A DNA stretch of 64,000 nt from an uncultured Polynucleobacter sp. (GTDB lineage Bacteria > Bdellovibrionota_B > Oligoflexia > Oligoflexales > RGVZ01). The DNA is taken from positions 21,766 to 85,765 of the forward strand of contig CAYOEM010000003.1 in assembly GCA_964402975.1 (NCBI GenBank), in the 5' to 3' direction. This document shows positions 10,953 through 31,019 of the stretch, in pieces. A program made the position numbers and the translations under genes. The notes under the pieces were generated by a model. That model saw only the letters and a program-made list of their open reading frames with translations, searched no databases and had not been told where the DNA came from. How positions within the stretch are numbered: position 1 is the first letter of the stretch; each line of letters opens with the position of its first letter.

Positions 10953-11029
10953 TGGTGCGGGTACGCTGACTCGAACAGCGGACCTCCACGATGTCAACGT
11001 GGCGCTCTAACCAACTGAGCTATACCCGC
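10953..11029 (-). tRNA. tRNA-Val (anticodon GAC)
   Basis: The reverse complement reads GCGGGTA-TA-GCTC-AGTTGGTTA-GAGC-G-CCACG-TTGACAT-CGTGG-AGGTC-CGCTG-TTCGAGT-CAGCG-TACCCGC-A-CCA. This is a perfect cloverleaf with an encoded CCA and anticodon loop TTGACAT. Confidence 0.93.
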
Positions 11030-14170: not shown

Positions 14171-14247
14171 TGGTGGGGAAGCACAGACTCGAACTGTGGA
14201 CTTCCTGCTTGTAAGGCAGGCGCTCTAACCAACTGAGCTACATCCCC
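14171..14247 (-). tRNA. tRNA-Val (anticodon UAC)
   Basis: The reverse complement reads GGGGATG-TA-GCTC-AGTTGGTTA-GAGC-G-CCTGC-CTTACAA-GCAGG-AAGTC-CACAG-TTCGAGT-CTGTG-CTTCCCC-A-CCA. There is one U-U mismatch in the acceptor stem, and CCA is encoded. Confidence 0.9.
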
Positions 14248-14262
14248 TTTTAGGAAGGCCCT

Positions 14263-14291
14263 GTTATCGCAGCCGAAAGCTGGTTTGTCAA
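14263..14291 (-). promoter_or_regulatory. Putative sigma70-type promoter of tRNA-Val(UAC)
   Basis: On the minus strand: TTGACA (14291-14286), a 17-nt spacer, then GATAAC (14268-14263). It ends about 15 nt before the mature tRNA 5' end. Confidence 0.4.
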
Positions 14292-14330
14292 CTCTTTAAG
14301 GGGGGTGGCAGGTGTTGCGCTTGATGGTTA

Positions 14331-14358
14331 TTGGCATTAAATAAATCAATAATATCAT
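14331..14358 (+). promoter_or_regulatory. Putative sigma70-type promoter facing the ORF-free interval
   Basis: TTGGCA (14331-14336), a 16-nt AT-rich spacer, then TATCAT (14353-14358). It is divergent from the tRNA promoter. Confidence 0.35.
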
Positions 14359-14364
14359 CTATTT

Positions 14365-14726
14365 AAAAAAATTATTACGGTCCCGTGACGCGGCGCCGAC
14401 TGAGTTTTTAAGCTCGGAAATGATGCCTCGGTGGTCGAGAGTCAGGGTTTCGAGTTGGGAGGGGCGCTTCATGCTTGTTGGTTGTACAGCAGAGCACGCC
14501 GCGGAGATGACCGTGGCGACCGTAATGCTTGATTTTAGGGCTCATCCAGAGACCGCTGGTCCTGTTAGCTGACGACATCTTCTCGAAGGTGTGTGGATAC
14601 TGGCTGGCAAAGTCTAGAGTTGCCGGCTGCGAGGAGAGTCGGACGCGTGAGTGAGGTGGTGTAGCACCGCAACGTGTCGCAAAGGAGAATTCAAACGCGG
14701 CCCCGAGGAGAGGGCCGCTTTTTTTT
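14365..14726 (+). ncRNA. Candidate structured non-coding RNA of unknown family (about 360 nt), bounded by a promoter and an intrinsic terminator
   Basis: No credible ORF; the best is 50 codons at 14420-14572 with no SD. GC-rich hairpins lie at 14497-14518, 14604-14626 and 14642-14678, with a strong terminator at the 3' end. No RNase P, tmRNA or SRP core motifs were recognised. Confidence 0.3.
14697..14726 (+). terminator. Rho-independent terminator (plus-strand orientation; may also serve thiQ on the minus strand)
   Basis: GCGGCCC-(8-nt loop)-GGGCCGC followed by T8 (14719-14726). The thiQ stop codon (14725-14727) abuts it, but on the minus strand only a weak GTTT tract follows the stem. Confidence 0.8.
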
Positions 14727-15687
14727 ATTCACTTACGTGGATAGCCAATCGCCGGTCAAACCATACCACATCATCGAATTCAGCGCTGTGTTCAAGTGTT
14801 ACGTCATTGGCGTCTTCAAGATCAATAATTCTCATCAGCCCGCCTATGTTTGTTTTCTGCGGCGCCTTGAATTTGTGACTCGCTAAAAAATTATCTGGTA
14901 TCTGTTTAGCTTGGCTTAGTGAAGTAAATAGATGGCCGGCCGCAATAAACATGCCGCTTCCATTTAGATCCGTCACGAGTCCTGATCGGAGAAGTCTAGC
15001 TGAACGTGCCGACTTTGGCCTAGTCAGTGCTTCATGTAAGGGCGCATGTTCTATCACAGATCCTTGATCGAGGACCGTAATATCCGTAGCAATCGTAAAA
15101 ATATCATCAAAGTCGTGAGTAATCAGGATGATGCCAGATAGTGTCTGCCTCATCCAAGATTGCAACCAACCAAGAATTTGAAGTCTGGTGGGCCGATCTA
15201 CAGCCGCAAAAGGCTCATCCAGGATAAGCCAACGGCAAGGACGTAGGACTGCTCGCGCCAAATTACAGCGTGAGAGCTGACCGCCTGACAATTGCGATGG
15301 CAGTCGATCTAACAAGGATCGATCAATACGAAGAGACGTTAGTACGTCGTTGATGCGCTCTGCAGTGGCCTTTTTAGATATTCCGCTGTCGTGCATGGCA
15401 AGACTAAGATTTTCAGCAACTGTGATACTAGGAAAAAGGCTGTCGCTTTGACCCATGAAGCTTATGGTGCGCTTATGGGGAGGGAGTGCGCAGATGCTGT
15501 TGTCGTCGATGAGAATATCGCCTTGTTGCGGCGTAAGAAAACCCACGGCTAAATTGACCAGTGTTGACTTCCCCGCTCCGCTTGGCCCACACAATACGTA
15601 GCATCGCCCGGATTCAAACTCTAAGTTATACTGAGCGGACCATGTCGTGGTCGCGTATTTTAGATTTTGAAATTTCATTTTAGGCAT
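14725..15687 (-). CDS. thiQ: Thiamine ABC transporter ATP-binding protein with a C-terminal extension of about 90 aa
   Basis: Walker A GPSGAGKST, signature LSGGQ and Walker B LILDEP. The preferred start is MPKMKF (ATG at 15687), which overlaps the thiP stop by 8 nt. The longer ORF to 15771 lies inside thiP. Confidence 0.85.
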   Translation of the reverse strand: MPKMKFQNLKYATTTWSAQYNLEFESGRCYVLCGPSGAGKSTLVNLAVGFLTPQQGDILIDDNSICALPPHKRTISFMGQSDSLFPSITVAENLSLAMHDSGISKKATAERINDVLTSLRIDRSLLDRLPSQLSGGQLSRCNLARAVLRPCRWLILDEPFAAVDRPTRLQILGWLQSWMRQTLSGIILITHDFDDIFTIATDITVLDQGSVIEHAPLHEALTRPKSARSARLLRSGLVTDLNGSGMFIAAGHLFTSLSQAKQIPDNFLASHKFKAPQKTNIGGLMRIIDLEDANDVTLEHSAEFDDVVWFDRRLAIHVSE

Positions 15688-28694: not shown

Positions 28695-31019
28695 GTGTAC
28701 ATCACCGGTATTAGGTTCAGAAAACACGGTGTCAAAGCCGTTCGCGGTTGGCGACTCACGGCGGGCGTTGGAAAATTGAGGCCCGTCGTTGCTTTTTATG
28801 GTGACTCGCGTGAGCTTGATACTTTAGCAAGAGCCCTTGTTTTTGCGCTTGCTGGCAGGCGTCACGAGGACCTCGCGGAGGTTTGGCTTGATGCAGCCGA
28901 CGATGCAGGTGATGTGTGGACTATTGAAAGGGGAACAAAAGGGACCCTTTTCAGGAAAAATAATCGTTTGTTGTCAACGGAAGAGGCACAGGGGTCCATG
29001 TTGGCGTCTCTTTTGGATCTTGATGCCAGTTTGAGTCGCGCCGAAGTTTTAGTTGCCCCGGTCGAGCTTCGTCAGATTATCACCAGAGGCTCGGATGTAG
29101 CGGCGACCGTATGGGATCTAAACAGTCGAGATGCCCGGGGAGACGTGGCTGCGTTGGTCGCGGCCCGTGAGTTATCAGCTCGCTGCGCAGAACTGGTGGG
29201 GCAGGATGAGTTTGGAGACGAGAAGAAGCTTTCTAGAATCGCAGGTCCATCTGCGAGGCTTCTTGGAGCCATGGATGAGCTGAATCGGCAAGCAGAGCAA
29301 CTTGGAACGCCTGGAGCCGATGAGCCCAAAATTGAGGCAGGGCTCGAGTTTATTCAATCTGAGATTGATGTTCTCAACCAAATTGACCAGCTGCTACGGC
29401 GTGTCAACGAGGGTGGAGAGACTTTTGGACGATTAGCTTCTTTATTAGAGTCATACGATTCGCGCCTCATTGAAATTGAAACAAAATGGTCCAAAGAGAC
29501 ATTAAGCGCCGTGGTCAAGCATGGTGAGGCATTCCGTTTGATCGATCTTTTGGTGCGGCTCAGGGCTTGCTCTAAATTTTCCGACAACATCAGTCGTATC
29601 AAGAAAGTTATAGATGAACAAATAAGACCAGTGAGCACTGACGGGGTAAGGGTTTGGAGTGATTATTTGACTGGTAGTCGATCCGACGGACAAGAGATCG
29701 AGAGCTGTCTTGCAAGTATGCTGCTGGGTGTTAAGCAAATGGCGCTCGAGGTCGATCGATATGTGTCACAAGCATCTGGAATCTCCCGTGGATCCTCCAA
29801 AGCTCAGACGGGCTGGTTTGAAAAGTTGAAGGCCGGCTCAACTCGATTGGTTGATGAGCGGTTTAAAGAGGCCTCCCCAGTTTTGCAGCAGCAACGAGAG
29901 TGGGTCGCGCGACTAGCGCGGGATGTAGATGCAGTAAAATTAGCCACTGAGTACGCGCTTCAAGCATCTCAGGGACTCACGGATAAGGTCAGTGCCGCAG
30001 GGGATAGGCTCCAAAAAGAAATATCTTCTTTGACCACTCTTTCTGCAAGGGTGTTATCAGATCTTGAGGCCTTGAGGGCTGAATGGAACGGGGTAGCCAA
30101 GGAATTTGCCATCCCAGAAACAACCGGCGTTGAGCAGCTTGTTGGTTTGATACGAGATGCGGGTGAGTACCTGGTGATCAGGGATACGAGACAGGACCTG
30201 GCTATTCGCGTTGAAGACCGTCGAGCGGTCCAGGCGGCATTAGAATCAGCCGTCAGACAGTGGTGGGATATTATCGGCAGTCAGAAGTCCACGGATCTTT
30301 CGAATTTATCATTTCTTGTCGGTGAGGCTAAAGGTGCGCTTCGTTACAGGGAAGGCCGTCGTCAGCGTATTCAAAAAGGTCTTGAAGATGCAGCACGCCG
30401 CTATGGTGCTCGAGCAACCTCTGACTGGGTAGCCCTGAGGCGCCAGGAAATCCGAAAAGAGTGGGCCAAATTGTTTTCAGGCGTCGATCTCCCTAGCCTG
30501 GAGCTTGACGATAACAGAGCCAGGGACGTGGTCGAACTTGCGCATCGCTGCGCTGCTCTGCTTGACGTTGCCAGGATAGAGGAGCAGGAAAGATTTTCGG
30601 CGGCCTCGTTATGGCCATCCAGGCTTGATTCGGCTGTATTAGTTTATCGCTGGTTAGACGAGCGAGTTCCACCGACTCAGAAGACAACCTTTGTTAAATC
30701 CCTAGGCTCGTTCACCGGGGATGGCAGTGTTCCGGTCGTACTGATGATGACGGATCCTGATATGGTCAAGAGTCTTGTTAACCTTGGGGCGGGGTCGGCA
30801 ACGGTTATAGACATCGATGATCTTGCGGCCATTGATGGCCCGAGACGAGAGGGTGCTATCGTAAAAGCCGAGCTGAGAAGCCGAAAGTCTCACCCCGTTA
30901 AACAGGATCAATCGGCGCAACCTAGTCAGTCCAATCCCAACCAACAGTCGGCTCGAGGCGACCTTCTAACCCGCGCTGAGGCGGCGTTACGGGTGCTCAA
31001 TCCAAAAGCCAGTCGTTAG
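28695..31019 (+). CDS. Large coiled-coil protein with an SMC/Rad50/YhaN-like head whose nucleotide-binding motifs are eroded
   Basis: GTG start. The N-terminus MYITGIRFRKHG...VVAFYGDSRELDTLARALVFALAG resembles the SMC-type N-terminal head, but GxxGxGKS/T is replaced by GDSRELDT. The middle is long, Ala/Leu/Glu/Arg-rich and helical. The C-terminal VPVVLMMTDPD sits where Walker B (hhhhDE) is expected. Confidence 0.55.
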   Translation: MYITGIRFRKHGVKAVRGWRLTAGVGKLRPVVAFYGDSRELDTLARALVFALAGRRHEDLAEVWLDAADDAGDVWTIERGTKGTLFRKNNRLLSTEEAQGSMLASLLDLDASLSRAEVLVAPVELRQIITRGSDVAATVWDLNSRDARGDVAALVAARELSARCAELVGQDEFGDEKKLSRIAGPSARLLGAMDELNRQAEQLGTPGADEPKIEAGLEFIQSEIDVLNQIDQLLRRVNEGGETFGRLASLLESYDSRLIEIETKWSKETLSAVVKHGEAFRLIDLLVRLRACSKFSDNISRIKKVIDEQIRPVSTDGVRVWSDYLTGSRSDGQEIESCLASMLLGVKQMALEVDRYVSQASGISRGSSKAQTGWFEKLKAGSTRLVDERFKEASPVLQQQREWVARLARDVDAVKLATEYALQASQGLTDKVSAAGDRLQKEISSLTTLSARVLSDLEALRAEWNGVAKEFAIPETTGVEQLVGLIRDAGEYLVIRDTRQDLAIRVEDRRAVQAALESAVRQWWDIIGSQKSTDLSNLSFLVGEAKGALRYREGRRQRIQKGLEDAARRYGARATSDWVALRRQEIRKEWAKLFSGVDLPSLELDDNRARDVVELAHRCAALLDVARIEEQERFSAASLWPSRLDSAVLVYRWLDERVPPTQKTTFVKSLGSFTGDGSVPVVLMMTDPDMVKSLVNLGAGSATVIDIDDLAAIDGPRREGAIVKAELRSRKSHPVKQDQSAQPSQSNPNQQSARGDLLTRAEAALRVLNPKASR

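Follow-up and report, generated by a model that had tools for sequence, protein, structure and literature searches.

What does the seemingly empty gap between a valine transfer RNA (tRNA) gene and a thiQ-like gene encode in an uncultured bacterium? The DNA in question, referred to as the window, is the whole stretch of 64,000 nucleotides (nt) analysed here from contig CAYOEM010000003.1 (assembly GCA_964402975.1), which is deposited as an uncultured Polynucleobacter sp. and carries a GTDB lineage within the Oligoflexales. The gap occupies positions 14248-14724 and is flanked by tRNA-Val(tac) (14171-14247, minus strand) and by the gene of a thiQ-like ABC ATPase, which ends at 14725 on the minus strand and is convergent to the unit described below. 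An earlier reading of the letters alone (the sequence-only reading) had proposed that the gap holds a discrete plus-strand unit with no credible open reading frame (ORF) and a structured RNA as its product. Small proteins and the RNAs carrying them are often overlooked in genome annotation, and we regard it as almost certain that this gap contains a coding small ORF (sORF) within a conserved structured transcript. The module spans 14360-14726 on the plus strand and comprises a promoter, a structured leader of about 100 nt, a Shine-Dalgarno (SD) sequence, a 33-codon ORF, a three-helix 3' domain of about 110 nt and a terminator; the predicted plus-strand transcript would be about 350 nt long and heavily folded. 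The discrete unit of the sequence-only reading thus holds up, being conserved, structured and covarying, whereas its lack of a gene does not.

A 33-codon ORF is conserved as protein

The ORF consists of 33 codons and a TGA stop (14471-14572, plus strand) and encodes MLVGCTAEHAAEMTVATVMLDFRAHPETAGPVS, with the segments MLVGCTAEHAAEMTVATVMLDFR and AHPETAGPVS. It starts at an ATG that lies in frame inside a 50-codon ATG ORF (14420-14572, plus strand), the one that had been set aside for having no SD. With regard to ATG 14420 this was correct; the internal ATG 14471, which had not been considered, is preceded by the strong SD GGGAGGGG at 14457-14464 on the plus strand, 6 nt upstream. Seventeen distinct homologous loci were collected by a metagenome scan with the peptide, by protein searches and by contig look-ups, all from Oligoflexales-like freshwater metagenomes. 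The ATG, the frame and the stop region of the 33-codon ORF are retained in all 17, the stop codon (TGA, TAA or TAG) following 31-33 codons after the ATG in each, and each of the 16 loci with sequence ahead of the ORF has a GGAGG-like purine run 5-10 nt before the ATG. The translated SD is even visible as 'GG(R)' or 'LGG' in over-long gene calls.

The pattern of substitutions changes sharply with the frame in which it is read. In a three-way alignment, changes at the third positions of the 50-codon frame set in only from the internal ATG 14471 onwards. Among the 17 loci, the variable columns at first, second and third codon positions number 11, 12 and 13 over codons 1-14, and 6, 2 and 16 over codons 15-31. 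Codon pairs that differ are synonymous or non-synonymous in 416 and 414 cases in frame, as against 101 and 713 or 56 and 767 cases in the other frames, so that the synonymous share is half in frame and 12% and 7% in the other two. Synonymous third-position substitutions are concentrated over codons 18-31; residues 18, 20, 21 and 23-31 are invariant, most of them with two to five codons each. Leu20 and Arg23 each appear with five synonymous codons (CTA, CTG, CTT, TTA and TTG; AGA, AGG, CGA, CGG and CGT), residues 24-31 use two to four codons each without any change of amino acid, and Asp21 is encoded by GAT only. Since selection at the RNA level cannot produce synonymous turnover around invariant residues, the ORF is coding and, as judged by the aligned homologues, under purifying selection at the protein level.

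The 50-codon ORF was rejected as a unit, as conservation is confined to its final 33 codons and ATG 14420 is unsupported. Positions 14420-14470 are not conserved as protein; they contain an insertion or deletion relative to locus L003, and the translated SD is the sole similarity. Codon-periodic conservation, which the sequence-only reading had itself named as evidence against a non-coding RNA, is found over the 3' two-thirds of the 50-codon ORF. Three public annotation pipelines (JGI, ENA, Logan data) independently called a gene of 32-33 amino acids at the ORF, while other annotations give longer ORFs, in which the translated SD is the sole conserved part of the N-terminal extension. The flanking proteins in L003 show amino acid identities of 55% (methyltransferase), 56% (thiQ) and 48% (thiP), and the peptide is more conserved than these adjoining housekeeping genes. 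For genome scans the lesson is that a first ATG without an SD does not imply non-coding DNA.

The peptide family has an invariant C-terminus

About 35 protein clusters make up the peptide family, all of them annotated as 'hypothetical protein' or not called at all. M1, D21 and A24-P31 (AHPETAGP) are invariant in 36 of 36 members, and 35 of the 36 have only 0-3 residues after P31. The family can be described by the C-terminal motif D-(F/L)-(R/K)-A-H-P-E-T-A-G-P, with the stop almost directly after it, and by an N-terminal half that is variable and predicted to be helical, with Cys frequent at positions 3-5. The peptides are 31-33 residues long and acidic (4 acidic residues, 1 basic residue and 2 His; net charge about -3), and no hydrophobic N-terminal segment, signal peptide or transmembrane (TM) segment was found in the peptide. 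AlphaFold2, run on the 36-sequence alignment, predicted a single helix over residues 2-24 and a C-terminal tail, with a mean predicted local distance difference test score (pLDDT) of 80; in such a model, a lone 24-residue helix carries no fold information.

Database searches gave no relative of known function. The peptide had no match in Pfam-A, PADLOC or PHROGs at E<=10, and the sole NCBIfam match, to FixC, was obtained with one of four peptides (E 0.13, 10.9 bits against a cutoff of 610 bits). The best E-value among PDB sequences was 0.46, which is not significant, and the motif string had no occurrence in the searchable literature. None of the family databases searched contains the peptide or the RNA fold. 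A mobile or viral origin was considered and rejected, as there was no match in plasmids or IMG/VR and none in PHROGs or PADLOC. A separate observation concerns the predicted protein P0012 (179 amino acids), which carries four tandem 22-residue repeats, MIDSYDQHRSHPATAGPVPAER, each with the motif variant HRSHPATAGPV; possibly, related units are arranged here in tandem and have been translated together as a single ORF.

The transcript folds into helices kept by compensatory change

RNAalifold, applied to eight full-length units, predicted 105 pairs, 28 of them with compensatory changes. Proceeding from the 5' end, the leader contains a hairpin at 14412-14455 (plus strand) with the outer stem GCUCGGAA/UUUCGAGU, ending 1 nt before the SD, and within it the inner stem-loop CUCG-GUGGU-CGAG at 14427-14439 (plus strand). 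In alignment A10 of the covariance model R2, which extends from the leader to about the middle of the ORF, the inner helix is 85.6% paired with compensatory changes in 5 of 8 pairs, occurring as CUCG/CGAG, CUCUG/CGGAG or CGCG/CGCG, and the outer helices are weaker (71% paired). A second plus-strand hairpin, at 14472-14496, takes in the start codon and is formed by UGCUU (14472-14476) and GAGCA (14492-14496), with 97.7% of the cells paired; L100 retains it by the double change AUGGAU/AUUCAU. Directly after it comes the in-ORF hairpin CGCCGCGG/CCGUGGCG (14497-14518, plus strand) over codons 9-16, in the variable part of the peptide. It is 89.6% paired with compensatory changes in 4 of 8 pairs, and these changes alter the encoded variable residues 10-16. 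Overall, the R2 alignment is 85% paired, as against 75% after shuffling and about 44% with slid partners, and it supports the inner 5' hairpin, the start-codon hairpin and the in-ORF hairpin at 14497-14518; these values are to be read with the fact that alignments A8 and A10 are fitted to their models. Elsewhere in the window, R2 also gave a weak partial match at 29140-29173 (plus strand; 14.1 bits, E 0.056, model positions 24-57, 68% GC), probably by chance.

The 3' domain was defined by hand on a plain MAFFT alignment (A7) of 14 sequences and consists of the helix PA and the hairpins A and B. PA (14573-14641, plus strand) pairs a CU-rich strand at 14573-14585, beginning 1 nt past the stop codon, with a GA-rich strand at 14630-14641, and encloses hairpin A. 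Its 7-bp core is 100% paired in the 14 sequences and has compensatory changes in 6 of 7 pairs, with CUUCUCG/CGAGGAG, CCUCUUCG/CGAAGAGG, CUUCUUCG/CGAAGAAG, CCCUUUCG/CGGAAGGG and others as variants. Hairpin A (14603-14627, plus strand; the CTGGCAA/TTGCCGG region) has compensatory changes in 6-7 of its 8 stem pairs and a 9-nt loop, AGUCUAGAG, at 14611-14619. This loop reads AGUCUAGA(G/U) in 12 of the 14 complete 3' domains, those of L094 and L095 differing. The loop of the window (14611-14619) also contains the 6-nt palindrome UCUAGA, through which the RNA could in principle dimerise by loop-loop (kissing) contacts. Hairpin B (14642-14678, plus strand) is built in two tiers, GACGCGU/ACGUGUC enclosing GGUG/CACC; the outer helix is 97.9% paired with three compensatory pairs, and the inner tier is present in all sequences in a register that differs between groups.

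For the 3' domain as a whole, 89.9% of the cells in A7 are paired as compared to 78.3% after shuffling, where 0 of 500 shuffles reached the observed value (a count, not a probability), and to 38-50% with slid partners; in 20 of 31 pairs, both sides have changed in a compensatory manner. A covariance model of this domain, R1, found exactly one copy per related locus and none elsewhere in the window, and the R1-fitted alignment agrees with the MAFFT alignment on pairing. At least seven helices around and inside the ORF are kept by compensatory change, including all three hairpins that the sequence-only reading had listed (14497-14518, 14604-14626 and 14642-14678). Folding energies of the single sequence point in the same direction, with z-scores against shuffles that are moderate for 14365-14727 (-2.68 on the plus and -2.08 on the minus strand) and reach -3.52 for the 3' part (14570-14727), the minimum free energy structure of which matches the comparative 3' fold.

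The two alignments were 89.9% and 84.2% paired on the plus strand, but 76.5% and 71.0% when read as the minus strand. The fold is assigned to the plus-strand RNA because 65-68 G.U cells turn into A.C on the minus strand, and a minus-strand RNA or a DNA palindrome is disfavoured on the same ground. Two further candidates were given up. In a switch that sequesters the SD, the RNAalifold partner of the SD varied between the in-ORF segment and the CU-rich strand depending on the alignment, and single-sequence folds gave a differing partner in almost every homologue. Since the CU-rich strand covaries with the GA-rich strand and not with the SD, and since the partners are inconsistent, we claim no specific anti-SD. 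The other was a hairpin over codons 26-31 (GAGACC/GGUCCU), which is broken by wobble changes; these codons are therefore conserved at the protein level.

The fold matches no known RNA family, as the sequence-only reading had expected; RNase P RNA, tmRNA, signal recognition particle (SRP) RNA, 6S RNA and the large ornate RNAs are among the families covered. Rfam 15 was empty in the gap at E<=1 (3 kb searched) and at E<=10 (14340-14740), a search of the whole window at gathering scores gave nothing for the element, and only the adjoining tRNA and transfer-messenger RNA (tmRNA) genes were found by Rfam in the homologous loci. ARAGORN likewise found no tmRNA in the gap.

Promoter and terminator

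The promoter-like sequence TTGGCA-16-TATCAT is present where it had been placed (14331-14358, plus strand), with 10 of 12 consensus matches, though such a match is not above chance. A -10-like TAATAT at 14350-14355 overlaps it and is, according to the alignments, retained in the closest relatives; together with the AT-rich block TTTAAAAAA it is retained in the group-1 loci, and the aligned position in distant loci reads TATAAA or TATACG followed by TTGTCTCAG. Transcription probably starts at 14362-14378. At the other end, the intrinsic terminator GCGGCCC/GGGCCGC (plus strand) has 7-8 GC pairs in its stem (14697-14718) and a tract of eight U (T8, 14719-14726). In the consensus scan, 6 terminator-like sites were found as against 2.1+/-1.5 expected. 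With the exception of L087, all complete homologues have a strong terminator in the corresponding position, with stem sequences that differ by compensatory changes, so this element of the sequence-only reading is borne out. Since the convergent thiQ-like gene has its TAA stop codon within reach of the U8 tract, the two overlapping (14719-14727), the hairpin may act in both directions and also end that gene; it was also reported on the minus strand, with the weak tail GTTTGAATTC.

On the opposite side of the gap lies the likely promoter of tRNA-Val (14263-14291, minus strand), with TTGACA, a 17-nt spacer and GATAAC; it stops 14 nt short of the 5' end of the mature tRNA. It is absent from the output of the consensus scan because the scan rule demands a T at position 6 of the -10 hexamer. 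The block GGTTTGTCAAC at this promoter is invariant in all relatives with the same synteny. A second tRNA-Val, with anticodon gac, lies at 10953-11029 (minus strand), 3.1 kb upstream of tRNA-Val(tac), and the pair is also retained in L004, L033, L083 and L098.

The module moves between gene neighbourhoods

The whole gap can be aligned in relatives (nhmmer E 5e-39 to 1e-152), which bears out the expectation that a functional unit should be recognisable there. L003, with the same synteny as the window, gave E 5e-39, with 303 of 506 columns identical. Genes for an RlmI-like and a Methyltransf_16 protein, both on the plus strand, lie upstream of tRNA-Val(tac) and the thiQ-like gene. In a scan of GTDB species genomes, the closest RlmI-like proteins (82-88% amino acid identity) came from freshwater-lake metagenome-assembled genomes (MAGs) labelled Oligoflexales, in which the gap could be aligned, as in L003 and L032, and the Methyltransf_16 protein had matches only on metagenome contigs. 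More distant RlmI-like proteins (59-75% identical) lie on contigs labelled Proteobacteria (L005), Polynucleobacter (L006), Bacteroidales (L008) and Patescibacteria (L028), of which L005 and L006 share the upstream tRNA-Val(gac); such labels are probably due to mis-binning or to loosely assigned MAG taxonomy and not to the true hosts.

The tRNA-Val/thiQ context is found in the window, L003, L083, L086, L088, L090-L092 and L098, and L089, which is truncated at the sORF ATG, shows its thiQ side only. Elsewhere, the unit follows an adenylate cyclase gene and is followed by a gene for a 550-amino-acid protein (L032, L096, L100), follows a trmFO-like gene with TIM or SnoaL on the other side (L094, L095), or is flanked by two minus-strand genes (L103). 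In total, the module occurs in at least six distinct neighbourhoods, with one copy per locus and no further copy in the window. In 5 of 7 contexts, the unit is followed by a convergent gene, and no gene travels with the unit across the neighbourhoods examined. As judged by these contigs, the module moves between neighbourhoods as a single unit.

Two exceptional layouts were observed. In L087 (JGI contig Ga0138276_1046816, 1-620), a tmRNA gene (L087:1-345; 123.7 bits with the Rfam model) precedes the sORF unit, which begins 8 nt past its CCA end, has neither its own leader nor a terminator, and is followed by an SD and the gene (ATG at 611) for an 85-amino-acid protein with a signal-peptide-like N-terminus. 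In that lineage, the sORF and tmRNA would thus seem to be co-transcribed. We rejected tmRNA as a general partner of the unit, as L087 is the only case and L103, the closest relative by peptide, is an ordinary stand-alone unit. In L101/L102 (3690-4100), the most distant lineage found, which is AT-rich, two tandem sORF paralogues about 300 nt apart, MSICEALYFAVDCINCAILDFRTHPKTAGPNSKGHI and MTTDLARNDFTDFSVKSVATDLRAHPETAGPF, end in ...AILDFRTHPKTAGPNSKGHI and ...SVATDLRAHPETAGPF, each with its own SD and terminator-like hairpin; the first retains the leader start TATACGATTGTCTCA that is also found in L095. The 3' RNA domain is absent from L101/L102 and the peptide motif is retained, so the motif represents the deepest conserved layer. 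In L100, too, the peptide persists with a 3' domain that the covariance model does not recognise. The RNA fold is conserved within the Oligoflexales-like clade.

Comparison with known systems

In kind, the unit belongs with the small-protein genes on structured transcripts of small RNA (sRNA) size. The obvious comparison is with the dual-function or small-protein sRNAs SgrS-SgrT, SR1-SR1P, RNAIII-hld, VcdRP-VcdP and AzuCR-AzuC (PMC12612679, PMC12310071; SR1, PMC3526287; VcdRP, PMC8672173). Shared features are a free-standing transcript, here a predicted one, some hundreds of nt long, with a Rho-independent terminator and a promoter, here a putative one that matches the consensus and is partly conserved, an ORF of 25-45 codons conserved as protein, and conserved RNA structure outside the ORF. 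The unit differs from them in having no sequence or Rfam relationship to any, in having helices also within the ORF and a 3' domain that starts directly at the stop, and in its host, an uncultured Oligoflexales-like lineage.

Type I toxin mRNAs (hok, tisB, aapA) carry a small ORF in a long folded mRNA with structured start and 3' end, and the present unit resembles them in its small ORF, high degree of folding and structured start region. In contrast to these toxins, the peptide is acidic, has no hydrophobic TM helix and is encoded in a single copy, and the consensus scan found no promoter-like site for an antitoxin on the minus strand of the region. The sRNAs derived from 3' untranslated regions (CpxQ, SroC) are structured 3' regions that end in the mRNA's own terminator; by analogy, the structured 3' end of this unit with its terminator could be released by processing, although the parent ORF here has only 33 codons.

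Among arrest peptides, we compared TnaC and SpeFL as well as SecM, ApdA, ApdP, ApcA and RQH (PMC8429421, 10.1101/604074, PMC7897499, PMC10987492, PMC10951233). The likeness lies in the short length, in the Arg-Ala-x-Pro and Ala-Gly-Pro elements, in the RNA structure directly downstream of the stop, and in a conserved C-terminal motif close to the stop, which is a general mark of arrest peptides; the motif is invariant in all 36 sequences and the stop lies within 0-3 codons of it in 35. The differences are that most loci here have no downstream gene in the same operon, that the peptide has no N-terminal localisation signal and no link to sec, yidC, tna or speF, and that RAHPETAGP is not a described arrest motif. 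Monitoring substrates (SecM/MifM/VemP/Apd/RQH) are recognised as ORFs upstream of secA, secDF or yidC that encode an N-terminal signal or TM segment (PMC10987492). None of these genes lies downstream of the present unit (thiQ, the 550-amino-acid protein, TIM, SnoaL and others are found instead), and the whole acidic peptide of 31-33 residues contains no signal or TM segment followed by a spacer of at least 30 residues. Attenuators of the TnaC/SpeFL type have the regulated gene downstream in the same unit; here, a terminator follows in all complete loci except L087.

Weighing of alternative explanations

That the gap is a mere spacer, with a bidirectional thiQ terminator and chance hairpins, might be argued from the terminator abutting the thiQ stop codon and from a promoter match that chance could supply. 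This view can practically be dismissed, as conservation of the gap equals or exceeds that of the genes on either side, and as the element, selected both as coding sequence and as structure, turns up in other genomes apart from thiQ and tRNA-Val. Scarcely more credible is a purely non-coding structured RNA with an incidental ORF, as the sequence-only reading had it: the strongly covarying structure without an Rfam match and a peptide that is in no protein family would fit, but the synonymous turnover over codons 18-31, the conserved SD and ATG, a stop held within a window of 0-3 codons, and the survival of the peptide motif where the RNA fold is lost would not. If the peptide is made, it could be the precursor of a modified or exported product, either signalling or resembling a ribosomally synthesised and post-translationally modified peptide, of which the invariant C-terminus would form the core or the recognition sequence. 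A short peptide with one extremely conserved segment and a variable remainder, often with Cys at positions 3-5, has such an appearance; yet no maturase, protease or exporter gene accompanies the ORF in at least six neighbourhoods, the radical-SAM gene near L101/L102 is of CofH type, about 1.2 kb away and not found elsewhere, and the peptide has neither a match to an NCBIfam or Pfam precursor model nor a signal sequence. We therefore consider this very improbable.

The remaining alternatives accept a coding ORF and concern what else the unit does. A dual-function RNA would encode the peptide and also act in trans through its 3' domain, by base-pairing or protein binding, either in full length or after processing to an sRNA that comprises the 3' part up to the terminator. 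Its layout is that of known dual-function RNAs (PMC12612679, PMC12310071), a stand-alone, sRNA-sized unit with its own terminator, and covariation extends across nearly the whole transcript, the ORF interior included. The loop of hairpin A is moreover invariant in 12 of the 14 3' domains above a stem that is free to change, which is typical of a recognition loop. However, complements of this loop occur in the 64-kb window at the level of chance (9 matches, 8.4 expected), no candidate target emerged there, the loop differs in L094 and L095, and the peptide persists in L101/L102 without the 3' domain and in L100 with one that the model cannot recognise. On balance, we consider a role in trans unlikely. 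It is quite improbable that the peptide is a regulatory nascent chain whose C-terminus stalls the ribosome in the exit tunnel, at AGP or at the stop codon, so that the stalled ribosome holds the CU-rich strand of PA open and thereby frees the SD-like GA-rich strand or changes decay. The profile is arrest-like, with a variable N-terminus followed by 11-17 invariant C-terminal residues up to a Pro, 0-3 further residues and the stop; the distance from Met to Pro31 is fixed at 30-31 residues, roughly the length of the tunnel, and the size is near that of TnaC (24 amino acids) and SpeFL (34 amino acids) (PMC8429421; bioRxiv 10.1101/604074). R-A-H-P and T-A-G-P resemble RAGP of SecM as well as the LAGP, RAPP, RAPG and NSP-stop/NAP-stop sequences (PMC10987492; PMC7897499), but this likeness was judged by eye and neither RAHP nor TAGP is among the proven stalling motifs. 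The unit of L087, with no terminator and upstream of a gene for a small secreted protein, would suit such a regulator; in most contexts, by contrast, the unit ends in a strong terminator and faces a convergent gene, which leaves no downstream gene to regulate, and the peptide has no signal or TM segment and no sec or yidC gene downstream. A stand-alone form of this idea, in which D(F/L)RAHPETAGP stalls the ribosome, melts PA and switches the state of the 3' domain with no downstream cistron, perhaps triggered by a small molecule or a translation-factor state, is likewise a long shot. If it were true, the output of the transcript would be an RNA conformation or an sRNA and not a downstream gene, and the L087 copy fused to the 3' end of a tmRNA gene would be of special interest. 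To our knowledge, an arrest peptide without a downstream cistron is a layout that has not been described so far.

Favoured reading and its meaning

We favour a coding sORF in a structured transcript of which the RNA acts purely in cis, a statement that in its entirety we hold to be rather probable, as distinct from its core, the coding sORF in a conserved fold, about which we have little doubt. In this reading, the product under strongest selection is the peptide. It would be made, and its C-terminal motif would act on some highly conserved partner, while the RNA fold would act in cis on stability and translation: the 5' hairpin, the compact 3' domain and the terminator would protect the message, and the start-codon hairpin and the post-stop helix PA would couple the initiation and termination of translation to RNA folding. 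The latter coupling would arise because a ribosome that terminates here has to melt the CU-rich strand out of PA.

Several points weigh against this reading. The start site, the transcript ends and translation itself are read from the DNA. The promoter match alone is not significant, because the consensus scan found one such site as against 2.0+/-1.4 expected, and its -35 element is not conserved among homologues. The homologues are not independent, as all come from metagenomes of one bacterial group, which adds to the caution already due to the shuffle count. No conserved neighbouring gene among the contexts hints at a partner, pathway or phenotype for the peptide. Finally, RNA conservation runs through the variable half of the ORF and the 9-nt loop of hairpin A is near-invariant; structure of this extent exceeds what a stability element usually needs and thus hints at a function at the RNA level.

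We know of essentially no recorded RNA biology for Bdellovibrionota-related freshwater bacteria. Here, what seemed an empty gap contains a gene and an RNA fold that are both under selection, and the family offers a clean case in which a dual function of the RNA, or a new form of regulation by the nascent peptide, can be put to the test.

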